Origin: an uncultured candidate division WWE3 bacterium | GTDB taxonomy: Bacteria; Patescibacteriota; WWE3; UBA101185; UBA10185 | DNA length: 54,812 nucleotides | Assembly: GCA_963765125.1 (NCBI GenBank) | Contig: CAVXUZ010000005.1 | Location: 427,441 to 482,252 of the forward strand | Direction: 5' to 3' | Shown here: piece by piece, positions 20,262-54,812 of the stretch | How positions within the stretch are numbered: the first letter of the stretch is position 1 | Layout of the letters: each line of letters begins with the position of its first letter | Made by a program: the position numbers and the translations under genes | The notes under the pieces: model-generated | What the model was told of the DNA's origin: nothing | Seen by the model: only the letters and a program-made list of their open reading frames with translations | The model's database searches: none

Positions 20262-22367
20262 ATGGCGACATTAAAAGAGCTCAGAGAAGAAAGAATAAAA
20301 AAGCTTGAGAAACTAAGAGATTTAGGCATTAACCCATTTCCTCCTCATGCAGTAAAAGACTTACCAAACAAAGAAATAACTGATAATTTTTCTAAACTCG
20401 AAGATAAGACAGTAACCGTAGCAGGAAGAATTATGTCGCTAAGGGAACACGGACAATTGATTTTTGCAGATTTGCACGATTTCACAGGAAAAGTTCAACT
20501 CTATATTAAAGACGATGAATTAAATCCAACAAATAAAAAAACGCAGGAACTTGGATTTACAGACCTGGGACTTTTAGATATTGGTGATTTTATACAAGCT
20601 TCGGGTAAAGTAACAAAAACAAAATCGGGCGAAGTTTCGATTACCCCAACTTCAATAAAACTTTTAACAAAAACGATCAGGCCTCTTCCAGAAAAAAGAG
20701 AAGGCTTAAAAGATAGAGATACAATTTTTAGAAGAAGATATCTCGATCTCGCTATGAATCCTGAAACAAGAGAAATGTTTATTAGAAAATCAAAGTTTTG
20801 GGCAGGCGTAAGAAATTTTCTAACAGACAATGGATTTATTGAATTTGAAACTCCGGTTCTTGAGCACGTCACAGGAGGCGCAGATGCCAAACCTTTTGTA
20901 ACCCACCACGAAGCCCTAGACGAAGATTTTTATCTTAGAATTTCCACAGAGCTTTATCAAAAAAGATTAATTGGGGGTGGTTATGAAAAAATCTTTACTC
21001 TTGGACCTAACTTTAGAAATGAGGGCCTAAGCGACGAGCACCTTCAAGAATTTTATCAAGTCGAGTGGTACTGGGCATATGCAAACTATAAAGACAATAT
21101 GGAACTCACCGAAAAGCTTTTTAAATACGTTGCTAAAGAAGTCTATGGAAAAACAAAGTTTGAAAAAAACGGTCACAAGTTTGATCTTTCTGACAAGTGG
21201 AAAGAAATTGATTACGCAAAAGTTATAAAAGAAAAATACAATGTAGATATTTTTGAAACACCCGACGAAAAGATTTTACAAATACTTAAAGGGAATAAAG
21301 TTAATCTACCAGGAAAAATAAATAGAACTCGACTTATCGACAACTTGTGGAAATTAATTAGAAAAGAAATCTCTGGTCCAGCATTTTTAATCAACCAGCC
21401 AAAATTTATTTCACCTCTCGCAAAATCTATCCCTGGTAACGAAAATTTTACCGAAAGATTTCAAATTATAATTGCGGGCAGCGAACTCGGTAATGGTTAC
21501 AGCGAGCTTAACGACCCATTTGACCAGCTAGATAGATTCGTCGAGCAGCAACAAGCAAGAAATGAAGGCGACGATGAGGCACAAATGCTCGACATAGACT
21601 TTGTTGAAATGCTCGAATACGGTATGCCACCAACCTCTGGTTTTGGCTTAAGTGAAAGGGTTTTCTGGTTTTTAGAGGGGGTCACCGCGAGAGAAGGAAT
21701 ATTTTTCCCACAGATGAGAGCAAAGCTCGACGATGTAACTAAAGAAATATACGGTTTATCGGAGCAGAAACAATCACCAAGCCAAAAACCCAGCACAAAA
21801 GAACCTACAGAAAAGGCTAATTTTTCAATCGCAGACGCAAAAAAACTTTTAGAAGATCATGTAAAAGATGATTATCAAAAACTACACGCGCTTATGGTCG
21901 CCGAAGCTATGAAATCTTACGCTGAAAAATTTGGTGAAGACCAAACACTTTGGTACATTACTGGCTTACTTCACGACCTTGATTATTTTGAGTACCCCGA
22001 GGAACACCCCGCAGTAGAAATAAAATGGTTTGAGACGTGGAATTTTCCAAAAGAATTTGTTGAAGCAGTTGCTGCTCATGCGCACGAAAGAACCGGAGTC
22101 GAACCAGAAACAAAAATATCATCAACCCTAGCTGCCACTGATGAACTTGCAGGATTTTTATACGCATATTCTTTGATGAGACCAGAAGGATTTGAAAACA
22201 TGGACGCATCTTCTGTTAAGAAAAAGTTTAAGGACAAGGCTTTCGCAAGAAAAGTTAACAGAGAAGATATAACATATGGCGTAGAAAAATTTGGTATAGA
22301 GTTTTCGGAACACGTTAATTTTTTAATCGACGTCTTCAATAAAATGGCGGAATTGAAAAAGCAGTAG
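20262..22367 (+). CDS. lysS: Lysyl-tRNA synthetase (class II) fused to a C-terminal HD-domain module
   Basis: The first ~500 aa carry an OB fold and class II motifs (FRNEGLSDEHLQEF, GFGLSERV). The last ~190 aa carry H...HD...H (KLHALMV, LLHDLDY, AAHAHE). Confidence 0.9.
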   Translation: MATLKELREERIKKLEKLRDLGINPFPPHAVKDLPNKEITDNFSKLEDKTVTVAGRIMSLREHGQLIFADLHDFTGKVQLYIKDDELNPTNKKTQELGFTDLGLLDIGDFIQASGKVTKTKSGEVSITPTSIKLLTKTIRPLPEKREGLKDRDTIFRRRYLDLAMNPETREMFIRKSKFWAGVRNFLTDNGFIEFETPVLEHVTGGADAKPFVTHHEALDEDFYLRISTELYQKRLIGGGYEKIFTLGPNFRNEGLSDEHLQEFYQVEWYWAYANYKDNMELTEKLFKYVAKEVYGKTKFEKNGHKFDLSDKWKEIDYAKVIKEKYNVDIFETPDEKILQILKGNKVNLPGKINRTRLIDNLWKLIRKEISGPAFLINQPKFISPLAKSIPGNENFTERFQIIIAGSELGNGYSELNDPFDQLDRFVEQQQARNEGDDEAQMLDIDFVEMLEYGMPPTSGFGLSERVFWFLEGVTAREGIFFPQMRAKLDDVTKEIYGLSEQKQSPSQKPSTKEPTEKANFSIADAKKLLEDHVKDDYQKLHALMVAEAMKSYAEKFGEDQTLWYITGLLHDLDYFEYPEEHPAVEIKWFETWNFPKEFVEAVAAHAHERTGVEPETKISSTLAATDELAGFLYAYSLMRPEGFENMDASSVKKKFKDKAFARKVNREDITYGVEKFGIEFSEHVNFLIDVFNKMAELKKQ

Positions 22368-35523: not shown

Positions 35524-38500
35524 TTAAGAAACTGGAACAAGTAGCAAATCGACTCTTGTTTGGGTTTCTTCTTTTTTTACTGCAGCAATCTTTACTCTTA
35601 GCTGGCTACCAACTTTATAATCCCAAGTATTGTGGGGATAAAGATTTGGTATTCTCACAAGACCAGTAAATCCTATCGGCAGTGTTACAAACACTCCAAG
35701 ATTTTCAGGAGTACTATAAACTACTCCGTCGTATTCGCTTCCGATTACGAGGTCGCTATAGTTTCCTTCAATTCTCTTCACACGCAATTGGTTTGACTTC
35801 CAATACAGCTTGTTTACTGCTCTTCGATAGTCATTGCTGTGTACCAATTCGTACAAATGTTTATAGACGTCAAAACTCATATGCCCTTTAAACACCAGCT
35901 TGTCTGACTCGTCGACGTAAAGGTTACCACCACTTTGCTCTAAAGTTTTCATTTCTTCTTCGGTAAACTCATCTAAATTAACCCGATACTCCTTTTCGGT
36001 ATCAAGATTAAAGTTTATTTGATAAGTTTCTCCCAGAGCAGTTTCGGATAACGGTTTATGCCACCTGCTTGCCCACGGCGATACAACAAAAAACAGTCCT
36101 TCTGACGGAATACTCCAATCGAGAAGTACGTGTACTGAACGGTCGGCTTCTATTTCAAACACTTTACCAACTGTTGAGTAAACACCACCATTAGTACGTT
36201 GCTGCCTCAGTTTAGATGAAAGTGCAATCTCAACTTTAGGAAGAGTTGATACTTTAACGTAATTTAGATCCTCTCTGATGAACATCACTGTTGCATCAAG
36301 AATGGTTCCTAGTGGCACTTGTGTAAGTGCTCTTTTTACGTAACTAAACATCATATCTTCTGGGTCGATTGCAATTATCAATCCGCTATTTGGTTCGATT
36401 GTCACTAGTGAAACTTCTCCATCTTCTGGATAAATCCCATGCTGAATAACCTCAAGTTTTACAGTTTTGCCAATTTCACAGACATCAACAAATTTTTTAA
36501 ATTTGTTCTGTTTATCTTGAACCGTTACCCAACATTCAACTAGCGACTGCTCGTCGAAATAGTATTTTTCAACTACAACTTCGAGTTCTTGACCCAAACT
36601 AACACTGCACTCTTGACCAACTTCTAACAGAATTGGAAAACCAAATTTTCCAATCTTAACTGAACTTGCAATACTTTCGACTTCTTCAGGATTGAACGCG
36701 GGCTTTTCGTCGACTTCAGATTCTTCCCCCTCGTCAACATCCTCTTCGTCTTCTTCCTGAATTTCGTCAGCGGCATTACTCATTATTTCTGTTATGCCTA
36801 ACCAGCTTCCATCTGAGAGTATTTCTAATCTCGCAACATCACCAGCTGGGTTAATCTCAGCAACAGACGCTTTGTAGAAACAATTGCTTGGAAGCAACTG
36901 TTCACACAAAATACGTTCATAGAGATTTGGTTCTTCAGGATTATCTGCCATCTCGCCTAATAACTTTGCGAATTGCCAGTGTTTATCAACTGAAGTTTGT
37001 AGATTTGAAGCAATGCTTGTGAAGGTTGTTAGCGATTCAACATTTGATTTCATTTTGGATTGATAGACATAATTATTGTCATTTCCGCTACTAATCAATG
37101 CGTCACTGCCAAGATACCTTAACAACACTGCACGAGTCCTTGGTATTAAATCTATTTCGACTGGCCGAACATTCAATCCTCTTTTATGGACATAGAAAGA
37201 AGATAAAATCTCTTCTTGTCTTTCCTTCAACACTTTTGAAAATATTTCGTGATTAACAAAGTTTCTTTTTGCCCATGCAACTTTTTCAATAGGGGTTCGC
37301 AGATTACCTGTTGATAAGTCCACTTCCCAAGATAAAAACAGTTTGAGCAAAAATTCAATGTCATCATGACAACCAGTCATCAGTGCTTTGTGAACACGGT
37401 ACACTTCATACTTTGTTTGTGCACTCCAGCGCTTATCCCATTTAAGGATTTGACGCAATCCGCCATTTCTTATAATCGGGATGAGAGTAGCAGTCTCTAC
37501 TAAACATCCGTAGATGTCAGCAGAAAGTAAAAGATCAACTATTTTTGCCGAGTAGTTAAATCGACGCAATAGTCTTCCGTATTCTGTGAGTGTTCCCTCT
37601 TCGTCTAAAGCTTTAACACTTGTTAGAACTTTTACAGCTCGGTCAACTTCTTCCGCGGGAGGATTATCTAACCAATTATTCTTAAGGTCAGCAAGTCCCG
37701 CAGCTCGAGAGTTAGATAATGCATTTTCAAGGTTCAATCTCTCAAAGTCAGTCTTTGGAAATTCAGGCATCGCTTCAAACTGATCTTTTGTGTAAGTCGT
37801 AAAAGCTCTGCCGTCACGAACACGTCCAGCACGCCCCCACCTCTGTCTAGCGTTTGCTTGGCTAATCAAAGTCAGAGGAATTTTAGTTTGTCCTAAAGCT
37901 GAATCCCAAACGGGTACTTTAGACAAACCAGTTTCTACGACGTGTACCAAACTTTCGATAGTAACCGATGCCTCAGCAATATTTGTGCTTACTACTACAC
38001 GGATTACTTTTTCTAACTCTTTACCGTTTATCGCCTGCTCTTGAATAGACGAGTCGACGCCGCGGTAAAGTGGTAAAATCTTAACCTTCATTTCTTTTGT
38101 GTTACTTTTACGCACTAAAGAAGATAGGTGTTCAACCGTGGCTTCGACTTCTCTTTTGCCCGGCATAAAAACTAGAATATCTCCTTTATCAAGTTTGCCT
38201 TCTTTTATCTGATCTATTACCCAAGCTGCCTTTTTTGCGGCTGTCGAAGTAATCATTGAGGACAATTTTGCAAGGTCTTCGTAGGGAAGTCGCTCGCTAT
38301 CATCCATCCAATCAACTTCTCCAGTCTCAGGGTTCAAGTAGCTGTGAGTCTTAGCTTCGAAATGAACTATTGTAGTGGTATCTTTTCCAAAATAATTTTG
38401 GAATTTTTCAGCGTCAATTGTTGCACTAGCAATAATAATCTTTAGATGCTGGTGCATTGGCATTTGTTCTTTGAGATTTCTCAAGATCATATCTATTTCT

Positions 38501-39225
38501 AATGATCTATCGTGTGCCTCATCAACCATTACGATACCAACGTTTTTTAAATCACCACGCTCAATCATATTAACTACCTGGCCATGCGTTTTTTGCACAA
38601 CAAGGTTTCGCTGATCTGCGTTTGCCTCACCACCATGTGTAAATCCAATAGTCCCACCAGCACCCAACCTTGAGTTATCAATTTTTGCAGCATACGATGC
38701 AGTATTAGACGCAGCAACCCTCCTAGGTTGTCCGACAATTATCTGCCCGTTCTTTGTAAAAAAATCTTCTGGTATACCTTCTGGTGGTTCAGACAACCAT
38801 TGAACAAATTTTGTTGACTTTCCTGAACCAGTACCTCCCAATATGATTGCAACTCTGTGGCTTGGATCTTTAAACCATTCGTATATCTGGTGAATATTCT
38901 CCTCGGTTACCCCAAATTTGCGCTTGCTTGCTTCAGTCTCTATCTCTGGTTCAAGCTGGTGTGTACGTTCAGCATGTTTAACCATACCTAAAGTTCCCAC
39001 CTCCAACTGTGAAATATCAAAACCTTGCCGAAGTTTCAGCGTGAAGTAGCTTGTTGCCATTTCCTGCCTAGCTTTGCTGTGCTTACCTTGACAACTTTCG
39101 CAGTATTCAGGTCTTGAAAACCCGTATTTTGCAAGTGCGCGGTATGATCTATCCGAGTAGTACACCCAACCAAGACAGTCGGGTTTACCAAAGTCTTTAC
39201 ACTTCACCTTCCATATCTTAGCCAT
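35524..39225 (-). CDS. DEAH/RHA-family (HrpA-like) RNA helicase with N-terminal Cys4 Zn-ribbon-like extension, acidic linker and C-terminal S1/OB domains
   Basis: Motifs GGTGSGKST, VDEAHDRS, SATID, TNIAEASVTI and QRWGRAGR. Cys at residues 9, 17, 42 and 45. Acidic run EIQEEDEEDVDEGEESEVDE. The terminal ~75 aa have an S1-like pattern (GSEYDGVVYS...GVFVTLP.GFTGLVRI...VGSQLRVKI). Confidence 0.9.
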   Translation of the reverse strand: MAKIWKVKCKDFGKPDCLGWVYYSDRSYRALAKYGFSRPEYCESCQGKHSKARQEMATSYFTLKLRQGFDISQLEVGTLGMVKHAERTHQLEPEIETEASKRKFGVTEENIHQIYEWFKDPSHRVAIILGGTGSGKSTKFVQWLSEPPEGIPEDFFTKNGQIIVGQPRRVAASNTASYAAKIDNSRLGAGGTIGFTHGGEANADQRNLVVQKTHGQVVNMIERGDLKNVGIVMVDEAHDRSLEIDMILRNLKEQMPMHQHLKIIIASATIDAEKFQNYFGKDTTTIVHFEAKTHSYLNPETGEVDWMDDSERLPYEDLAKLSSMITSTAAKKAAWVIDQIKEGKLDKGDILVFMPGKREVEATVEHLSSLVRKSNTKEMKVKILPLYRGVDSSIQEQAINGKELEKVIRVVVSTNIAEASVTIESLVHVVETGLSKVPVWDSALGQTKIPLTLISQANARQRWGRAGRVRDGRAFTTYTKDQFEAMPEFPKTDFERLNLENALSNSRAAGLADLKNNWLDNPPAEEVDRAVKVLTSVKALDEEGTLTEYGRLLRRFNYSAKIVDLLLSADIYGCLVETATLIPIIRNGGLRQILKWDKRWSAQTKYEVYRVHKALMTGCHDDIEFLLKLFLSWEVDLSTGNLRTPIEKVAWAKRNFVNHEIFSKVLKERQEEILSSFYVHKRGLNVRPVEIDLIPRTRAVLLRYLGSDALISSGNDNNYVYQSKMKSNVESLTTFTSIASNLQTSVDKHWQFAKLLGEMADNPEEPNLYERILCEQLLPSNCFYKASVAEINPAGDVARLEILSDGSWLGITEIMSNAADEIQEEDEEDVDEGEESEVDEKPAFNPEEVESIASSVKIGKFGFPILLEVGQECSVSLGQELEVVVEKYYFDEQSLVECWVTVQDKQNKFKKFVDVCEIGKTVKLEVIQHGIYPEDGEVSLVTIEPNSGLIIAIDPEDMMFSYVKRALTQVPLGTILDATVMFIREDLNYVKVSTLPKVEIALSSKLRQQRTNGGVYSTVGKVFEIEADRSVHVLLDWSIPSEGLFFVVSPWASRWHKPLSETALGETYQINFNLDTEKEYRVNLDEFTEEEMKTLEQSGGNLYVDESDKLVFKGHMSFDVYKHLYELVHSNDYRRAVNKLYWKSNQLRVKRIEGNYSDLVIGSEYDGVVYSTPENLGVFVTLPIGFTGLVRIPNLYPHNTWDYKVGSQLRVKIAAVKKEETQTRVDLLLVPVS

Positions 39226-39270
39226 CTCTGAGATTCTCCTCTCTTATAGGTTATTTGAATTTGTTAAGCG

Positions 39271-39279
39271 GATTCTACC
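39271..39279 (-). promoter_or_regulatory. Extended -10 promoter element (TGGTAGAAT) for the helicase gene
   Basis: The minus strand reads TGGTAGAAT about 45 nt upstream of the helicase ATG and just after the upstream terminator. The -35 is weak. Confidence 0.4.
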
Positions 39280-39290
39280 AGAATTATCAC

Positions 39291-39335
39291 AAAAAGAAAA
39301 AGCCGGAGTGACATAATATTTTTGTCATTCCGGCT
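39291..39335 (-). terminator. Intrinsic terminator after the three-gene operon
   Basis: AGCCGGAATGAC/GTCACTCCGGCT (11 of 12 bp) followed by TTTTCTTTTT on the minus strand, 8 nt after the stop of 39343..40452. Confidence 0.8.
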
Positions 39336-39342
39336 TATTTGT

Positions 39343-40452
39343 TTACGACCAAGGAGATCCCGATGAAAAACTGCTGTCTCCTGAGTCAAAAAACTTTGGT
39401 ATTATTTCCAACCATGGATTCGAACGGCTTTCTATTAGTTCTTCAACTACTGCTCGATAAAACCCAATTGTCACTGGTTGAAAACCTACTTGATAGAAAG
39501 TTATTCGCAACGGTCCCTCTTTTCTTGCTTTATCAAGAATATTCTTTGTTTCCTGATATGCAGTTTCATCGGTAACAGCAAGGGGTCTTGTTACTGACAC
39601 CATCTGATTTCGAAAGAGATATCGCGTAATCATATGGTCCATCTCCGGGTGTCGATCAGATATCTGCCCAATTGCAAGAGGTGCCTGGCTTCTTATGTGA
39701 TGTAGCTCTCTGTCAGAAAGTTTATTCAAACATAGAAGTGGAAACGGTCTTGCCTGAGAACCGTCTGAATAACCAATCGGTATTTCCACTGGACTTTTCC
39801 CTGGTCGCATATAAATAAATTGCCTAAGCGCTTTAGTTATTGCAACATGCGCAAATACACCTAAATTTACCGGTGACTTGTCGCCACTGTAAAAACGTGA
39901 TATCGCGCGACTTAACAAAGCTGTTGTGCCCTCGTCTCCGTCGCTAGTTTCGAGTAGCGTAGCTGATGGAGTTTCTCGAAATATTGGTTCTGTAGCTTCT
40001 ATTTTAGTATCTGAAAAGCTACAACCAAAAGTTGGATCGGTAATCTCAAACAGGGTCTTTTTACCTTTCTCAACACTCCTTAGAAGTGCCAACCTAAAGT
40101 CAAACTTCGTCAACTTGTCATTGTTTAACCCATTAATGATGTTCTGAAATGCTATTTGATATTTACTAGCATCCTCAGGGGTTATAAATAGTCCTGCAAG
40201 TTTTACTTTTGTCTGTTCGTTGTATTGAGAATTTTTTATACTATCTCTAACAACCTCTAAGTATGCGTTTAGCAGGCTATCTGTCGGCGCAAAATTTTCT
40301 GCAAGATATTCTTCTAAGCAGAGGCTTCTGATGTGAGACAACCCAACACTGTTTGCATTTCCTTCTTTAACTTGGTCAATCATGCTTTGTTTTAAAGAAA
40401 ACAAAAGATCATTTATGGTGGAATCTGGTTCTATAAGATACACCGCTGTCAT
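39343..40452 (-). CDS. Hypothetical protein, third gene of the nuclease operon (no recognisable domain)
   Basis: 369 aa. The ATG is 2 nt after the upstream stop, and its SD AAGGAGG is formed by the terminal Arg-Arg codons of the upstream gene. Confidence 0.75.
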   Translation of the reverse strand: MTAVYLIEPDSTINDLLFSLKQSMIDQVKEGNANSVGLSHIRSLCLEEYLAENFAPTDSLLNAYLEVVRDSIKNSQYNEQTKVKLAGLFITPEDASKYQIAFQNIINGLNNDKLTKFDFRLALLRSVEKGKKTLFEITDPTFGCSFSDTKIEATEPIFRETPSATLLETSDGDEGTTALLSRAISRFYSGDKSPVNLGVFAHVAITKALRQFIYMRPGKSPVEIPIGYSDGSQARPFPLLCLNKLSDRELHHIRSQAPLAIGQISDRHPEMDHMITRYLFRNQMVSVTRPLAVTDETAYQETKNILDKARKEGPLRITFYQVGFQPVTIGFYRAVVEELIESRSNPWLEIIPKFFDSGDSSFSSGSPWS

Positions 40453-40454
40453 AG

Positions 40455-41627
40455 TTACCTCCTTATTAGACGACTTCTCTCAAGCTTCTGCATAGCAGAG
40501 GCGTCGATGTTTTCTAAAATCTCAGGACTAACAATAACGTTAATTCCTAATTTTTTAGCGGTTTTCACGAAAACCCCCTGAAAACTTGGTTTGGTAAAGA
40601 AAAAATCTTGCGGATAAAGTACACCTAACCATACATTTTTCTGGTTTTTGTATGCGTCGGCCATTTCAGCTAGCTTTCTTATATCATCCCAACCAAAAAG
40701 CATGAGGTGCCCAGAACTTCTTGGTCTTACCATAATCACTAGCTCCTGACCTTTATCCAAAGTTACAACTTCGTCGTCAACAAGCCAGGGAACCTGGAGT
40801 GTTTCCAACAACTCGTACTTCTTTGCATAAAATCTTGGGTCAAAACTTGTCTTTACGAGATTATCAGCCGCTTCAATGTCAATTATTTCGCCTTTTTGGT
40901 TCGTAGTTTCTTTTTGAAGTAGCTTTCTTGTCAGCAATGAACCAAGTATTGGCCCACTAGCTTGAAACAAATCTGCCAAAAACAACTGCCTATTAAGCGG
41001 ATCAGCATCTCCAAACAAAACATCCTCCGGCCACCTAGCTCCTGTGAGAATCATTTCCATTTCTTCAGATGTCCATATCTGATTGTTCACCATAAAACAA
41101 ATTCGTTCGACTGTAATTCTTTCTGAATTGTTAAGGTGCACGGCAACATCCCTTGCGGAAGGTGAAAGATCTGTCAACTCAAAATAAAGTCTCTTTGCTT
41201 CAGTCGCACCTATCATCCCGCTGAGAGAATTTTGAAGTCTCATACCTGAATCGAGTGCCAATGATTGCAGGATAGAAGGGATCTCAACTTTCTTTGAACC
41301 AAAATCGTTAGTAAATTGAATATCCATCGTGCTCCCACTCATAAACGCATCGGAAAGGATAAACAAAATACCAATTTTTGTGCCAGAGTATTCATCAAAA
41401 ACAATTGGGTTATAAGATGCAAATAAATCTACATCTGTAGACCCTTTGAATGAGTTATACCTGGTAGCTACTATTGCTAAAACAATGTCGCGGACACAAA
41501 AACGATGTGGCCTCCAGTTTTGCTTTCGCGGTTCCTTATTTTTATATACGAAATCCGCTTCAAACCTAGTGGCATGTTCTGTAAAAGTGTCGATCGCAAC
41601 CAACGGGTCACTATTCTTGTCTTTCAT
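40455..41627 (-). CDS. Hypothetical protein, second gene of the nuclease operon (no recognisable domain)
   Basis: Start trimmed to MKDKNSDPL (ATG at 41627), 4 nt after AGGAGG. The longer track ORF (to 41684) would overlap the upstream gene and lacks an SD. Confidence 0.75.
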   Translation of the reverse strand: MKDKNSDPLVAIDTFTEHATRFEADFVYKNKEPRKQNWRPHRFCVRDIVLAIVATRYNSFKGSTDVDLFASYNPIVFDEYSGTKIGILFILSDAFMSGSTMDIQFTNDFGSKKVEIPSILQSLALDSGMRLQNSLSGMIGATEAKRLYFELTDLSPSARDVAVHLNNSERITVERICFMVNNQIWTSEEMEMILTGARWPEDVLFGDADPLNRQLFLADLFQASGPILGSLLTRKLLQKETTNQKGEIIDIEAADNLVKTSFDPRFYAKKYELLETLQVPWLVDDEVVTLDKGQELVIMVRPRSSGHLMLFGWDDIRKLAEMADAYKNQKNVWLGVLYPQDFFFTKPSFQGVFVKTAKKLGINVIVSPEILENIDASAMQKLERSRLIRR

Positions 41628-41643
41628 CGTGCCTCCTAAAATA

Positions 41644-42144
41644 TTACGGATTTTCTGTGTGTATAACCTGCCACCTTTCCCCAAACTTTTCGTAGACCTT
41701 GGTCACAAAAGTATCGGGATTGGTGTGTACAGCTAACGTTCGCACATTTTCTGCACCATTTATGTCTATTTCGTTTCCGATTCGAGCATTGTCAGGTGAG
41801 TACATTCCTGGGCTAGTTTGCATTAGTTCTGCCTTACGATCTAGCCAACTTGGGGAAAGCTGTTGACCAAACTTTGTTCCTTTTAAACGTAAGCGGTCAC
41901 CCTCAGTCATTTTTGATTCGATGACAACCAGTTTTCCTTCTCTATCGCGATAAACTGAATCAATACCCTTGTCAGGTTGGTCAAAAAATTCTCCAGTTAA
42001 CCCAAGTTTATTTACAAGAACATGAGCAGCAATTTGTTCGCCAATATCACCCTGGAGCTTGTTCCCATAGGGGTTTGCTTTGCTCGTACTGCGCATGTTT
42101 TTACCGTCTTTTGAAGCACCGTACTTATTGCAAGGCGTAGCCAT
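41644..42144 (-). CDS. Small PD-(D/E)xK (Mrr/restriction-endonuclease-like) nuclease-fold protein
   Basis: 166 aa with GDIGEQIAAHVL (helix Glu), GIDSVY (Asp) and VVIESK (ExK). SD AAAGGAG lies upstream. Confidence 0.65.
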   Translation of the reverse strand: MATPCNKYGASKDGKNMRSTSKANPYGNKLQGDIGEQIAAHVLVNKLGLTGEFFDQPDKGIDSVYRDREGKLVVIESKMTEGDRLRLKGTKFGQQLSPSWLDRKAELMQTSPGMYSPDNARIGNEIDINGAENVRTLAVHTNPDTFVTKVYEKFGERWQVIHTENP

Positions 42145-42223
42145 TGCAGTCTCCTTTCGTATTATTTGTGATTTGGATTAGTTTGAGCCTATAATACGCA
42201 TCGCTACAGAAAATGTAAAGTTC

Positions 42224-42238: not shown

Positions 42239-42877
42239 ATGTTTGAAATGCCACCATTTCACCATATTACGATTACACCTCCAAATATTGACCCCAATTC
42301 TGTGATGGATAAATTTCTAACCATCAATAACTCTGATTCAAAATTTATACCCTGCGTAAGTACAGAAAAAGCAAAAGAAAAACAAAAACTAATTTCAGAG
42401 AAAAATAAAACAAAAGGTATTGAAAAAATGACTCTTGATGAATTTGTTGAATACTATTGGGGGTTTAACGAGTTTAATAAAAAAACGGGTTACTATGGCT
42501 ATCTAGGTAATCTAAATGATCACTACGAAAATTATGTACTTGGTGAAGAGATTTTTATAAATCTTAAGTGCGAGAGAAAATCACAAGAAGTAAATAAAAA
42601 TATTGATTGGAATAAAATGCGCGAAGAGGCACACGAAAGAGCTGTCGATAATTCACTCACATACGATAAACCCGATAAAGAGGATTTTATAAAAATAAGA
42701 GAAGTTGTTCATCTACGACCTTATTCTTTTGTTGGCAAAGATGGGGTTTGGCACGAATTAGACCAAGAAGATGAAGACGTTAAACTAAGCCTCGAGCTGT
42801 ATCAAAAAGCTTGGGACGACGCGCTAAAAACAGCTGAGCCTGATGATATTTTTACACACTGGAGGACGATAGAGTAA
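42239..42877 (+). CDS. Hypothetical acidic protein
   Basis: 212 aa with no recognised motif. Divergent from the nuclease operon. Confidence 0.6.
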   Translation: MFEMPPFHHITITPPNIDPNSVMDKFLTINNSDSKFIPCVSTEKAKEKQKLISEKNKTKGIEKMTLDEFVEYYWGFNEFNKKTGYYGYLGNLNDHYENYVLGEEIFINLKCERKSQEVNKNIDWNKMREEAHERAVDNSLTYDKPDKEDFIKIREVVHLRPYSFVGKDGVWHELDQEDEDVKLSLELYQKAWDDALKTAEPDDIFTHWRTIE

Positions 42878-42879
42878 TC

Positions 42880-43404
42880 ATGGACAAACAAACACTTATA
42901 AACATGACCGACGAGCTATACAACATTTCAAAAAATGCCGGTATAGTTGATGATCTATCATACGATGAGGTCTTTCCAGAAGTTTATATTAATAATGTTG
43001 TAACTGAGTCAGCCACTATAAGTGGACTAGAAACATTACTTCTTCGCGAAAAAATAATCGACATCGCAGAAAAAAATGGGAGAGCTTTTTATCTCGACTG
43101 GCGATGGGATCCGAAAGATCTCGCGTGGAATATTAATAATGCAATTCCAAATTTAGGACTTGAGATTCTTGAAGAGGTACAAAATGATGACTCGATGTTT
43201 TTGAGAGTAAGTATTCTAGGTAGTGAAATTGAAGTAACAACTAACTCCCCCTATGACCTTGTCACTCTCATAAATGGGAAGCTAGAAAATGTTGAAATAC
43301 TCGCTGTTGATTCAGAGGGCGATTCATACATTTTTTTAATCGTAGATAGCAAGTACGCTACCGAAATTGCGAACTCAGAATTTTTTGGTACTACCAGACT
43401 TTAA
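42880..43404 (+). CDS. Hypothetical acidic protein (immunity-protein-like size and composition)
   Basis: 174 aa. Starts 2 nt after the upstream stop. Confidence 0.6.
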   Translation: MDKQTLINMTDELYNISKNAGIVDDLSYDEVFPEVYINNVVTESATISGLETLLLREKIIDIAEKNGRAFYLDWRWDPKDLAWNINNAIPNLGLEILEEVQNDDSMFLRVSILGSEIEVTTNSPYDLVTLINGKLENVEILAVDSEGDSYIFLIVDSKYATEIANSEFFGTTRL

Positions 43405-43407
43405 ATA

Positions 43408-44046
43408 TTACTCAGCACATCTCTCAAATGCTGGTAAATGCTTTTGTTCGGAAGCGTTCATAAGATTCTTAAATACCGCGGTAATATCTTCATAGTCACT
43501 TACTTCTGGTAATAATTCATCATTATATAACGCTGCGTTTTCTTCTTCTGCTGTAACTCCAGCGGTACAAGCTGCTGCTAATGTTTCAGGAGCGTTGATT
43601 GCACCAATGTAAGAATTTTCTGGAACGTCTAATCCATATTTATCAAAGAGTGATTTCAAAGAAGAAATGTGTTGTTCCTCAGCACGACTAATCATTATAA
43701 AAGGTCTTACGTTGCCTAATTTTTGCATTATGGCTTGGTAAGTTGCAAACGCTTTATATTCGTCATCGAGTGCACTTAACAACGCGTCTTTAGCATTACC
43801 TGAAAGTTCAGCAACAGGAAATTCGAGATCGTCCACAGCTAAACACCCGTCTGCCAAACAATTACCTTTGTTTTGACCCTGCATACCTACCGGTCCGTTA
43901 CCCATACCGCGTGCATCACCTAAAGGCTCTTTTCTCATTTGCTGTTGCGGTTGCATTTGAGACGCAGTTTTTGTTTTGTAGTAGACTGCCCCACCTGAAA
44001 TTGCTAGTAAAACTAAAATGGCTGATATTATTAATGTTTTATTCAT
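43408..44046 (-). CDS. DUF2202 ferritin-like domain protein, membrane-anchored
   Basis: Has LSALDDEYKAFATYQAIMQKLGNVRPFIMISRAEEQHISSLKSLF. Start trimmed to MNKTLIISAIL (signal anchor). Confidence 0.7.
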   Translation of the reverse strand: MNKTLIISAILVLLAISGGAVYYKTKTASQMQPQQQMRKEPLGDARGMGNGPVGMQGQNKGNCLADGCLAVDDLEFPVAELSGNAKDALLSALDDEYKAFATYQAIMQKLGNVRPFIMISRAEEQHISSLKSLFDKYGLDVPENSYIGAINAPETLAAACTAGVTAEEENAALYNDELLPEVSDYEDITAVFKNLMNASEQKHLPAFERCAE

Positions 44047-44165
44047 AAAGTCAGTATATACCCTTATTTCTGAGAGAATACTGAGCATTAAGAGATTTGT
44101 GGATTCTCTTTACTAGTAATATAATCTCAGCAACTAAATATCTTGAGTTGAAAAGGAGATAAGAA

Positions 44166-44414: not shown

Positions 44415-44546
44415 AAACCTAACAAAGGAGTAGCAAATGTTAGACTAATGGGCACACGAATTATTAAAAAACGTGCTGCCCATTTTTGTTTTTCGAATTA
44501 TTGACAATTACTTACTTTGTTAGACAATGTTATCTGTAATCCCGTT

Positions 44547-44978
44547 ATGCTATACATCAAAGTCAAAAAAACTAAAAATATGGGTTGGGGTGTTTACGCC
44601 GATAAAGATTTTTTTGTTGGTGATCAAATTGAAATTTGCCCGGCAGTTCCACTGACTGAAGAAGAATTAAAATCTGTTGAATCTACAAGATTAGAAAATT
44701 GGTTTTTTGAATGGCATAATTTTGAAGAATCAGCTCTTATCATGGGTTACGGTATGATTTATAACCACTCTTCGACTCCAAACGCCAAGTACGAATTTGA
44801 TTTTGAAAATGAATTTGTTACCGTCGTTTGTACTGCGCCCATTAAAAAAGGTCAACAAATATTTTTAAATTATAACCAAACCAGAACAACCGACGAACCT
44901 GTAAGCATGTTTCACCCCGTAACTAAAAAAACCGTTGTGTTTGTTGATGGAAAACTAAAACCCAATAATAAAAACTAA
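44547..44978 (+). CDS. SET-domain protein (putative protein lysine methyltransferase)
   Basis: Has GWGVYADKDFFVGDQI, NHSSTPN (the NHSxxPN motif) and QIFLNY. Start trimmed to the ATG at 44547; the track ORF starts at a TTG at 44517. Confidence 0.75.
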   Translation: MLYIKVKKTKNMGWGVYADKDFFVGDQIEICPAVPLTEEELKSVESTRLENWFFEWHNFEESALIMGYGMIYNHSSTPNAKYEFDFENEFVTVVCTAPIKKGQQIFLNYNQTRTTDEPVSMFHPVTKKTVVFVDGKLKPNNKN

Positions 44979-53317: not shown

Positions 53318-53391
53318 TGGGGAATCGTCTAATGGCAGGACGTCGCACTCTGGATGCGAAAATTGGGGTTCAAATCCCTGTTCCCCAGCCA
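53318..53391 (+). tRNA. tRNA-Gln (anticodon CUG), CCA encoded
   Basis: TGGGGAATCGTCTAATGGCAGGACGTCGCACTCTGGATGCGAAAATTGGGGTTCAAATCCCTGTTCCCCAGCCA. Anticodon loop CTCTGGA. Confidence 0.9.
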
Positions 53392-54812
53392 AGAAGAACT
53401 GGCAAGCTGTAAAACCTCACTATTTGTTATCTTCTCAATGTTTATTCCTGGTTCAAACTTATCTAGTACTTCTTGAACTTCATTTTTACCTTTCTCAATT
53501 AAGAACCATGCTTTGCCCCCGTCAATACAGAGTTTTCTATCTTTTATTGTTAAGTTCGAACCAAGAGAGTTTAGTATTGAAACTTTAGTTTTAGAATCTC
53601 CATTTTCAAACCAATATTTTGCGTAACAGGAAAAATCAAACAACTTCGTTGCGGTATCAAACCAATTTTCTTGTCTTGTTCTAGTGGATTCTTTTTGTGC
53701 TAAAAGTAATTCTTTCTCTTCAATTAAAGGTTTTTTCTGTTCTGCTAACTCTTTTGGAGATACCAGATCGTGGTTTGTATTTTGAGGTGAAATATATAGC
53801 TTCATCAGGTTATCTATTCTTTTTTCAACATCACTTAGTGCACCATCAAGATTTTTATTAACGATTTGTCTGTTTGTTACTTCAACATCTGAAAGCTCAT
53901 TTAAATGCGCTATTGCCCAGTCTCTAAGGCGAGGAGAGATTGTAAATTTCTCTATCTCTTTACTAGCAGCTTTTTCTAATTCTGATAATGGTAAGCTACC
54001 TTCAGCACATGACGGGGTAGTTTTCTTTGTACAGCGGTAGTAGACATAGTGGAGGAGTTTTTTATCCTTCATATCCTCTATTAAGGTATTACAATGTGGA
54101 CATGCGTCTCTATCTTGTTTGACAGCGAATTTTGCCTTACAGTTGCCACATATTATTTGCCACTTCTCTTCATAAGTAATACTTCCTCCACATCCCCCAC
54201 AACGTAAAAGTTCTTTATAAATGCCGTCTCTTTTTATATGACTAGATTTTCTGTTATTAGAAAATAATATTTGAAGTTTTTCGAATTCTTCTTTTGTTAT
54301 CATTGGTTTATGATTTCCCCAGCCTTCTTTAGTGACACCTTCAACTTTCCTCTTCATCCATCCAAAATAATAGGGGTCTTGGACTAAACGATAAAAGGCA
54401 CTCTTAGATATTGGTTTACTACCTTGTCTAGCTGTTTTGATTGTCCTATAACCCCATTCATTATTTAGCTTTTCTAAAACCTCCATTCTTGTATAGTTCC
54501 CGCTCAATAACAATTCGAATGCATTTTGGATCAGTATCCATCTTTCTTGATCCGCATCAATATAATTTTCTTTGGTTATTGGATTTTCTGCATTTATATA
54601 ACCAGGCTTAGCAAAACCTCCCCATTGTTTTTGTTGGAAAAACTTTTCCTTGTTACCCCTATGAACTGCATCAGATTTATCATCAGAATCTCTTGTTGCC
54701 TTAGTAAACTCTTGCATTAGGTACTCTTTGTCTCTCCCAGTGTTTTCAAAAACTGAATTTGGAGTTATTACATATTTAAGTAGATTATCAGACATAAGCT
54801 GAACAAATTCTC
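53329..54812 (-). mobile_element. Large serine recombinase (recombinase domain, Zn-ribbon, coiled coil); 5' end probably beyond the right edge
   Basis: Has YYFGWMKRK, the Zn-ribbon RCGGCGGSITYEE...CGNCKAKF...CPHCNT, and a long coiled coil. The frame stays open upstream of the first ATG to the window edge and no catalytic resolvase domain is seen. The last 21 codons overlap tRNA-Gln. Confidence 0.8.

Follow-up and report, generated by a model that had tools for sequence, protein, structure and literature searches.

In a 54,812-nucleotide stretch of the genome of an uncultured candidate division WWE3 bacterium (contig CAVXUZ010000005.1, positions 427,441 to 482,252; hereafter the window), three tightly coupled minus-strand genes, termed here g1, g2 and g3, are followed by the gene of a large DEAH/RHA-type RNA helicase. 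Comparison with related loci leads us to read these genes as a four-part conflict system, in which a leader-bearing effector, g2, g3 and the separately transcribed helicase would work together inside the cell as a sensor-adaptor-effector machine, a reading to which we give about even credence. A conflict system of some kind, for defence or as a toxin, is the most plausible explanation of the locus. A first-pass annotation of the same DNA had proposed an anti-phage system or a toxin with regulator and immunity proteins; its conflict reading stands.

A word-indexed search of 5.8 billion proteins returned three relatives of g2 and two of g3, and the contigs encoding them display the same gene order, followed by a helicase of 1167-1557 aa. 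Pattern scans added one metagenome-assembled genome of the Ardenticatenia (Chloroflexota) and 24 metagenome loci. Searching with a g2-g3 alignment profile gave 55 proteins, annotated as unnamed or "hypothetical", to which only two organism names are attached, Candidatus Woesebacteria and Candidatus Blackburnbacteria. Locally built hidden Markov models of g1, g2, g3 and the helicase were mapped onto all homologous module loci (labelled L001, L006 and so on), and three long contigs were examined too; the long contigs include the complete 0.92-Mb Woesebacteria genome CP066693.1 and a contig of 63% GC. Relatives of g2 and g3 form ~60 clusters at 90% identity among the 5.8 billion proteins and come from Patescibacteria (candidate phyla radiation, CPR), Chloroflexota and other metagenomic bacteria. 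The distribution of the module is rare and patchy, its architecture is variable, and g2 and g3 have no relatives in IMG/VR viral contigs, which leaves no prophage signal; such a pattern is typical of conflict systems rather than of housekeeping genes. Described at first as ORFans, g2 and g3 indeed fall into no nameable family, but with these relatives they are best regarded as rare rather than strict ORFans.

Co-occurrence and gene order hold up in other genomes, with g2 and g3 always adjacent to each other and the helicase always adjacent to them. In all 20 distinct loci with enough flanking sequence, g2 and g3 are co-located with a DEAH-type helicase of the same clade, and these carriers span 37-63% GC and include the complete Woesebacteria genome and the Ardenticatenia assembly; the loci without a visible helicase all run into a contig end on the side where it would lie. 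The helicase gene is found just downstream of the pair on the same strand or, in the type with fused g2-g3, divergent and 2.3-2.8 kb upstream. On this record the helicase is an obligate partner of the trio. The first-pass annotation had singled out the trio as a candidate undescribed unit, which is right in that it is conserved and undescribed, but the unit has four parts. It had also pointed to the neighbouring helicase and to an atypical methyltransferase; the first proves to be a partner, and the second, which is not kept beside the module in other loci, is no part of it.

The layout of the helicase runs from an N-terminal zinc ribbon (C9, C17, C42, C45) through a GSGKST...DEAH core, a winged-helix/HA2 region and an acidic linker to a C-terminal S1/OB domain. 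Its motifs are intact (GGTGSGKST, VDEAHDRS). Pfam models match for DEAD (7e-11), Helicase_C (2e-10) and, weakly, HA2_N, and PDB searches return Prp22/DHX8, Prp16, Prp43/DHX15 and HrpA at expectation values (E) of 1e-47 to 1e-56. Walker A motif, DEAH box, Helicase_C and HA2/winged-helix region together mark the protein as a DEAH/RHA helicase. It scores below the NCBIfam equivalog cut-offs for HrpA (204 vs 723 bits) and HrpB (195 vs 546), and only the core, aa 122-589, aligns. The CxxC...SRPExCxxC zinc ribbon is kept in nearly all loci examined, and the S1 domains in the C-terminal third give a weak match in the window and clear ones in relatives.

The products of g2 and g3 have no match in Pfam, PADLOC, PHROG, NCBIfam or PDB sequence searches. 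Their genes are separated by 2-3 nt, share an overlap of 4 nt or have merged, giving a single protein of ~800 aa in about half of the lineages, so that the two seem to behave as one protein. An AlphaFold2 model of g2, built on a 37-sequence alignment, reaches a predicted local distance difference test score (pLDDT) of 92.7 and a predicted template modelling score of 0.88. The predicted layout consists of an N-terminal alpha-beta-beta-beta-alpha-beta unit, a helical domain, a beta-rich domain and a C-terminal alpha/beta domain, and Foldseek finds nothing at E <= 1e-3 for it in PDB or BFVD. Scattered local matches to GNAT acetyltransferases (E >= 0.09, ~93 columns) were not adopted, as the SGTKIG loop at the position of the coenzyme A motif does not fit Q/RxxGxG/A. 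Reading the N-terminal domain of g2 as a degenerate PD-(D/E)xK fold, an idea prompted by the order of its secondary-structure elements, would be speculation: hhalign against g1 was empty, and the motif would have to be D...(E/D)xD. An hhalign comparison of g1 with g3 likewise gave nothing. In some lineages a SUKH/SMI1-KNR4 domain, a classic toxin-immunity or adaptor domain, is fused N-terminally to g2 (7e-12); three further SUKH-g2 proteins are found, and the g2 of one lineage carries a faint TsiV-like signal.

The g3 model is uneven, with a pLDDT of 77.9 overall, ~50 for aa 1-170 and > 90 for aa 170-369. This mirrors the family, in which the N-terminal half is variable, helical and poorly predicted and the C-terminal domain is highly conserved. 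The top Foldseek matches of the C-terminal domain in PDB are Cam1, Cap5, Csm6, Cap4-SAVED and a ring nuclease, and nearly all of its top 20 structural neighbours are CARF or SAVED proteins. The superpositions have probabilities of 0.9-1.0 and a root-mean-square deviation of 3.8-4.8 A over ~125 columns, but E of only ~1e-2 and TM scores of 0.2-0.3, and CARF/SAVED sequence models do not match g3 in Pfam, PADLOC or PDB sequence searches. No locus holds a cyclase or CD-NTase-type gene in or beside the module. The g3 C-terminal domain thus weakly resembles CARF/SAVED sensors, and we take this as a lead rather than an assignment. Structure prediction with Foldseek, a route considered earlier for both proteins, hence leaves g2 without a neighbour and g3 with a marginal one.

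The effector encoded by g1 consists of an N-terminal cysteine leader and a nuclease domain with E36, D62, E76, K78 and W100. It had been called a restriction-endonuclease-type PD-(D/E)xK protein from its GDIGEQ, GIDSVY and VVIESK motifs, all of which we find, and conservation of E36, D62, E76 and K78 bears this out; the family's match to a PoNe toxin and its presence in RHS and WXG100 proteins narrow it to a toxin type. An exhaustive phmmer search of 1.84 billion representatives yielded 110 relatives, and in the 101 that were aligned D62 is invariant and G32, G35, E36, G60, E76, K78, W100, M108 and N119 are at least 90% conserved; the catalytic order E36 ... D62 ... E76-x-K78 is that of PD-(D/E)xK enzymes. 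On its own, the g1 of the window has no match in Pfam, PADLOC, NCBIfam, PHROGs or PDB sequence searches. Single family members match Mrr_cat_2 (1.4e-4), NucS_C (2.2e-4) and NucS models of NCBIfam (2.8e-4, 7.7e-4). The profile of 101 sequences matches the PoNe DNase VP14465 (9waq_B) at E = 8e-3 and 19 bits, in an alignment that spans G-x-D, ExK and the Q-S-x-x-W-I-E helix. Two further profile matches were set aside, one to 5hqh (YbbR-like C-terminal, 11-sequence profile) as spurious and one to the designed repeat protein 7rdr (101-sequence profile) as a low-complexity repeat artefact.

PoNe proteins are a family of PD-(D/E)xK DNase toxins, characterised by Mg2+-dependent activity, with the motif Kx3GExnGIDx2YxnYx3ExK, delivered by secretion systems of types V, VI and VII (T5SS, T6SS, T7SS; PMC6688995, PMC13377157), and VP14465, solved as VP14465-VP14460, contains such a domain (PMC13377157). 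They are neutralised by PoNi proteins of DUF1911/DUF1910, encoded directly downstream of ~90% of PoNe genes (Jana et al. 2019, PMC6688995). Our g1 displays the GE (G35-E36), GIDSVY (60-65) and ESK (76-78) elements and departs in two places: the Lys precedes GE by 5 residues instead of 3, and Leu72 occupies the place of the Tyr in Yx3ExK. A Pfam scan of the module genes finds no DUF1910/DUF1911 domain, g2 having no Pfam match at E <= 1, and the g1 of the window carries no T5SS, T6SS or T7SS delivery domain, only its 22-aa cysteine leader. Since the motif mostly fits, the Lys spacing and the Tyr differ and a PoNi partner is lacking, we call g1 PoNe-like rather than a PoNe member, and it is most simply a toxin-type PD-(D/E)xK nuclease related to PoNe DNases.

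In many g1 relatives the domain is C-terminal in proteins of 300-400 aa with WXG100/LXG-like helical N-termini and small WXG-like genes alongside, and in one it forms the tip of an RHS protein (Rhs_assc_core 6e-13), which identifies it as a polymorphic toxin warhead. The small genes beside the WXG-type toxins encode WXG-like partners unrelated to the module, on contigs of 1.6-1.9 kb only. One g1-family protein, P0138 (500 aa), has N-terminal tandem CxxC...RVPxLCKDC zinc ribbons that, compared by eye, are akin to the conserved CKxC...SRPExCxxC ribbon of the module helicases (in the window aa 1-45, 39090-39225 on the minus strand). This zinc ribbon, common to P0138 and the module helicases, may be a shared adaptor module.

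Module-associated g1 proteins begin with the cysteine leader instead of WXG100/LXG or RHS delivery domains. The leader is ~20 aa long with the consensus M-x(1-5)-C-x-[KE]-x(5)-[DE]-x(3)-[IM], in the window MATPCNKYGASKDGKNM, and it starts 38 of the 110 g1-family representatives; the cysteine is the sole residue invariant across 17 aligned N-termini. Leader variants include MSQCCGKIPxxDDV..I, MGCAEY.. and MPCNKF... We saw no matching copy on g2, g3 or the helicase. Within homologous modules at least six unrelated C-terminal domains follow this leader, and the slot upstream of g2 is polymorphic, being filled by interchangeable leader-bearing proteins. The occurrence of one leader on unrelated C-termini in an equivalent slot indicates that the effector is the exchangeable part of the module, and leader, g2, g3 and helicase the constant ones. 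The trio is accordingly not the fixed set that it was first taken for, g1 being replaced in other loci by unrelated cysteine-leader proteins.

For the working of such a system we infer that a complex forms, that g2-g3 restrain g1, that the helicase senses RNA and that DNA is degraded as a result. Through translational coupling, g1, g2 and g3 would be made in fixed proportion, and g2 and g3 would form a complex, as implied by their fusions. This complex would dock and restrain the nuclease via the cysteine leader and/or by direct binding, as suggested by the immunity-type SUKH domains fused to g2 in some relatives. The helicase would engage RNA through its zinc ribbon and S1 domain, be it foreign transcripts, aberrant RNA or ribosome complexes, and remodel the complex at the expense of ATP, and a nucleotide or an RNA end may be the ligand of the CARF/SAVED-like domain in g3. 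Activation would free the nuclease to degrade DNA, resulting in immunity of the abortive-infection type.

Several points weigh against this four-part reading. To our knowledge, no DEAH/RHA helicase has been documented in bacterial immunity, and no component has a PADLOC match. The sensor resemblance of g3 is marginal (E ~1e-2, TM 0.2-0.3), and the locus is without a cyclase or other signal generator. The link to PoNe consists of one profile match at E = 8e-3 and agreement in the motif, and the role of the leader and the contact between g1 and g2 are purely inferred. Flanks in 24 loci hold mostly housekeeping and transport genes and few defence genes; this leaves no defence-island signal and differs from the setting of ORFans and accessory genes first described. 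Finally, outside the module g1-family relatives occur as secreted interbacterial toxins, and this would fit a toxin system equally well.

Such a system is the best placed of the alternatives, and we rate it as unlikely. The module would be a polymorphic toxin/immunity system acting between bacteria or between an epibiont and its host, with the leader as a trafficking or loading signal that replaces WXG/LXG or RHS domains, with immunity provided by one or more of g2, g3, DUF6630, an accessory family termed x5 and small downstream open reading frames (ORFs), and with the helicase as an accessory. It would account for the g1 domain at the tip of RHS and WXG100-type toxins, for one short leader on unrelated C-terminal domains, for the fusion of the classic immunity domain SUKH to g2 and for the many carriers among Patescibacteria, which live attached to host cells. 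Extra pairs of a leader protein and a small ORF point the same way. In L010, L012 and L015 a gene of the FPVPEDFG leader family is followed by a homologous small helical ORF, and L011 has an ORF at the same position; these cassette-like pairs are inserted upstream of the gene for fused g2-g3 or, on the opposite strand, in the space that separates g3 from the helicase, and look like toxin/immunity pairs. PoNe toxins are, moreover, delivered by T5SS, T6SS and T7SS (PMC6688995). Against such a role, the loci encode no secretion apparatus and no signal peptide or transmembrane component, hydrophobic stretches are missing from the leader, and no PoNi protein (DUF1910/DUF1911) is found by Pfam in the module genes scanned. 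The obligate helicase of 1200-2000 aa and the g2-g3 unit of ~760 aa would also far exceed known immunity proteins and be left unexplained. The obligate large RNA helicase, the sensor-like domain of g3 and the missing secretion component are what make us favour an intracellular system.

A second alternative, which we consider quite improbable, is a selfish addiction module of the toxin-antitoxin kind, with g1 as toxin, g2-g3 as a large antitoxin and the helicase as regulator, and with no dedicated role in immunity or competition. A toxin gene followed by translationally coupled partners and a patchy distribution would be in line with this. The GC content of ~0.40 over helicase and trio (36000-42000), against 0.35-0.37 on either side, is a mild difference compatible with horizontal acquisition and would suit an addiction module too. 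However, mobile-element genes are missing from the flanks of the module, both in the window and in the long contigs, the system is large and costly for genomes of 0.5-0.9 Mb, and interchangeable effectors with a sensor-type helicase are traits of immune systems rather than of plain toxin-antitoxin pairs. The idea overlaps with the four-part conflict system, as many toxin-antitoxin modules are themselves defence systems.

A housekeeping complex of RNA metabolism, in which an HrpA-like helicase serves ribosome rescue, RNA processing or repair with g1 as a nuclease that processes RNA or DNA and g2-g3 as cofactors, would suit the S1 domains of the helicase, its closeness to Prp22/DHX8/Prp43/HrpA and the housekeeping genes nearby, but is very improbable given the extremely rare and sporadic distribution over distant phyla, the high divergence (28-55% identity) with fusions, inversions and exchangeable effector domains, the nuclease warhead shared with RHS and WXG toxins, the SUKH domain on g2 and helicase scores far below the HrpA/HrpB equivalog cut-offs (204 vs 723 and 195 vs 546 bits); apart from the helicase scores, these are hallmarks of conflict systems.

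The organization of the locus agrees with a single transcription unit for the trio (Table 1). A distance of 16 nt separates the g1 stop from the g2 ATG and 2 nt the g2 stop from the g3 ATG. Direct reading of the sequence reveals the Shine-Dalgarno sites AAAGGAG, TAGGAGG and AAGGAGG for g1, g2 and g3, the last formed by the final g2 codons AGG AGG (Arg-Arg). For g2, a mechanical ORF list offered an earlier TTG start, and the ATG behind TAGGAGG was adopted. Order and tight spacing are retained in relatives at 28-55% identity, which makes the linkage of the three genes more than chance and confirms the tightly coupled operon with strong ribosome-binding sites that had been described. The upstream promoter region and the downstream hairpin with T-run, likewise proposed before, are also recovered. 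Between g1 and the divergent gene at 42239 lie 94 bp with a promoter-like site, which is a consensus match only, such sites being no more frequent in the region than in shuffled sequence. The hairpin at 39335..39291 folds with -18.8 kcal/mol (z = -5.4, equalled by 0 of 200 shuffles), and its 9-nt loop is the only reason why a scan for consensus terminators missed it. In the window and five other loci, six lineages with a downstream helicase, a hairpin and U-run of differing sequence stand straight after the g3 stop and are followed by a -10-like box. Terminator and promoter between trio and helicase gene thus appear positionally conserved, and as the helicase is a conserved partner, they would mark a boundary of transcription and not of function.

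Table 1. Coordinates of the module, its regulatory sites and related features in the window and in homologous loci
Feature	Position	Strand	Description
g1	42144..41644	-	166 aa; effector gene, first in the trio
g1 cysteine leader	42079..42144	-	aa 1-22, MATPCNKYGASKDGKNMRSTSK; invariant Cys5, K/E at +2, acidic at ~+8, I/M at ~+12
g2	41627..40455	-	390 aa; start at the ATG behind TAGGAGG
g3	40452..39343	-	369 aa
g3 C-terminal Rossmann-like domain	39346..39945	-	aa 170-369; conserved YxDGSQ, RHxxxD, RN, TDE, YQxGFxP
DEAH/RHA RNA helicase	39225..35524	-	1233 aa; adjoins the trio downstream; predicted separately transcribed unit
Candidate sigma-70-like promoter of the trio	42191..42219	-	TTTACA-17-TATTAT; 10/12 consensus matches; within the 94-bp divergent region
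Intrinsic terminator between g3 and helicase gene	39335..39291	-	hairpin, then UUUUUCUUUUU
Terminator-like hairpins in relatives	L001:8445-8493, L006:8189-8226, L017:4921-4955, L019:8143-8184, L028:1711-1732		directly after the g3 stop
Divergent gene of no assigned function	42239..42877	+	212 aa; no Pfam match; 40% identity to L001:4823-5515(-), same divergent position
DUF6630 gene	42880..43404	+	174 aa; Pfam DUF6630 at 5.5e-10; divergent from g1
DUF6630 genes, four lineages	window 42880-43404(+), L010:3588-4178(-), L011:425-1018(-), L019:4668-5261(-)		divergent from the effector gene
Accessory family x5	L029:1307-1975, L030:1584-2264, L020:327-1001, L025:6280-7182, L034:7702-8376		~222 aa; fused-g2-g3 loci only
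Accessory family of ~325 aa	L016:91-1068, L024:6469-7443		fused-g2-g3 loci only
Leader protein, coiled-coil	L007 (797-1420), L008		equivalent slot or elsewhere in the locus
Leader protein	L031:6958-8058		366 aa; different D...DxK-like end
Leader proteins	L006:5565-5915(-), L017:2117-2515(-)		116-132 aa; divergent from g2; both loci without g1
Leader protein	L035:9010-9996		328 aa
Small leader family, "FPVPEDFG...YD..TG..HYT"	L015:129-608, L033, L010:7456-7782(-), L011:4371-4712(-), L012:1733-2122(-)		
Extra two-gene cassettes	L010:7075-7782(-), L011:3882-4712(-), L012:1283-2122(-), L015:129-1191		leader protein + small ORF

Among the neighbours of the module in 24 loci, only DUF6630 and Fic recur. 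DUF6630, for which the literature searched held no description, is possibly an immunity or accessory protein of the module. Neither x5 nor the ~325-aa family matches Pfam, x5 has no PDB sequence match, and hhalign of x5 against DUF6630 gave nothing. The 212-aa divergent gene adjoins the module in the closest lineage only. The 63%-GC carrier displays the only neighbourhood resembling a conflict cluster, with a DUF4062-AAA_16 STAND NTPase and a large WD40 protein adjoining the module (L035:221-8487).

The window itself is cellular DNA of ~37% GC that encodes a class II aminoacyl-tRNA synthetase, RecJ, oligopeptidase F and tRNAs, and an Rfam scan of it finds two tRNAs only. The synthetase (20262-22367, plus strand; 701 aa, tRNA-synt_2 with an OB anticodon-binding domain) carries a C-terminal HD-domain extension, an unusual fusion. 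Unannotated genes beside the module include those of a DUF2202/rubrerythrin-like protein (43408-44088, minus strand) and a small bacterial SET-domain protein (44517-44978, plus strand). Where the window ends, the gene of a large serine recombinase (Recombinase and Zn_ribbon_recom; 53329-54795, minus strand) slightly overlaps tRNA-Gln (53318-53391, plus strand) and may mark the border of an integrated element, ~11 kb away from the module.

Should the four-part reading hold, DEAH/RHA RNA helicases, a lineage that serves RNA surveillance and innate sensing in eukaryotes, would gain a conflict system in which one of them is the core helicase. We suggest tentatively, and with less conviction than the reading itself, a new class of immune or conflict machine, composed of a DEAH/RHA helicase, an adaptor of novel fold made of two proteins or their fusion and interchangeable effectors recruited by a leader with a possibly reactive cysteine, that bacteria would possess as their equivalent of the eukaryotic DExH/DEAH RNA sensors. 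The leader would tie unrelated effectors to one machinery and could serve as a search handle for toxins, and the PoNe-type DNase domain would be seen not just in secreted toxins but also in an apparently intracellular setting linked to a helicase. Two new protein families are defined, g2 with a confidently predicted fold lacking structural neighbours. CPR genomes carry few recognised defence systems, and the module would bear on how ultra-small genomes of Patescibacteria invest ~7 kb in a dedicated module. In the literature searched, neither the module nor the leader is described.

Compared with known systems, the g1 nuclease is closest to PoNe. Both have the GE...G(I/F)DxxY...ExK core and the Q-S-x-x-W helix, the family profile matches a solved PoNe structure, g1 relatives are fused to WXG100 and RHS delivery domains, and a partner gene lies directly downstream. 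In contrast, the similarity of g1 is remote (E = 8e-3), the K-to-GE spacing differs and Leu replaces the Tyr of Yx3ExK; g1 carries a ~20-aa cysteine leader in place of FIX, PAAR, Rhs or LXG, the downstream g2 and g3 are not DUF1910/DUF1911, and the module adds a DEAH/RHA helicase.

The effector-associated domain (EAD) concept, known from NTPase conflict systems, offers a parallel to the leader in that a short common N-terminal module sits on unrelated effector domains in homologous loci. Known adaptor or delivery domains are, however, much longer than the cysteine leader, and it matches none described. In polymorphic toxin systems, C-terminal toxin domains vary behind a common N-terminal module, and immunity genes lie alongside (Zhang et al. 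2012, PMC3482391). Of these traits, our loci display a leader on at least six unrelated domains and candidate immunity genes (SUKH-g2, DUF6630, small helical ORFs), with no linked secretion system.

The modelled C-terminal domain of g3 shares with the CARF/SAVED proteins Cam1, Csm6, Cap4 and Cap5 a Rossmann-like topology ending in a beta-hairpin, and its conserved polar residues lie in post-strand loops, where CARF ligand sites are found. It differs in having no sequence match, a structural E of ~1e-2 and no cyclase or CRISPR context, and it is not fused to an effector but follows a helical region and, in many lineages, g2. The helicase resembles HrpA/HrpB, Prp22/DHX8 and Prp43/DHX15 in its core, GSGKST and DEAH motifs and winged-helix/HA2 region, with S1 as in DHX8/Prp22, and is set apart from HrpA/HrpB and the eukaryotic DEAH/RHA proteins by its unique N-terminal CxxC...CxxC zinc ribbon, its C-terminal S1/OB domain and its fixed partnership with g2 and g3.

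In its logic the module resembles Hachiman, which pairs the PD-(D/E)xK nuclease HamA with the superfamily 2 (SF2) helicase HamB, and other nuclease-helicase defence systems such as Gabija, Nhi and Hna. As in these, a nuclease effector is genetically coupled to a large SF2 helicase, with possible sensing and restraint. None of the module's four proteins has a match at E <= 1 in PADLOC-DB v2, HamA/DUF1837 and HamB models included, in agreement with the earlier verdict that the locus fits no named defence system. The module helicase is of the DEAH/RHA type with S1, not HamB-type, and is separately transcribed, and the module has g2 and g3 as extra core proteins and interchangeable leader-tagged effectors. 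A conflict system built from a nuclease and a helicase is thus of a known kind; its composition, with a DEAH/RHA helicase, two new families and leader-tagged effectors, is new.

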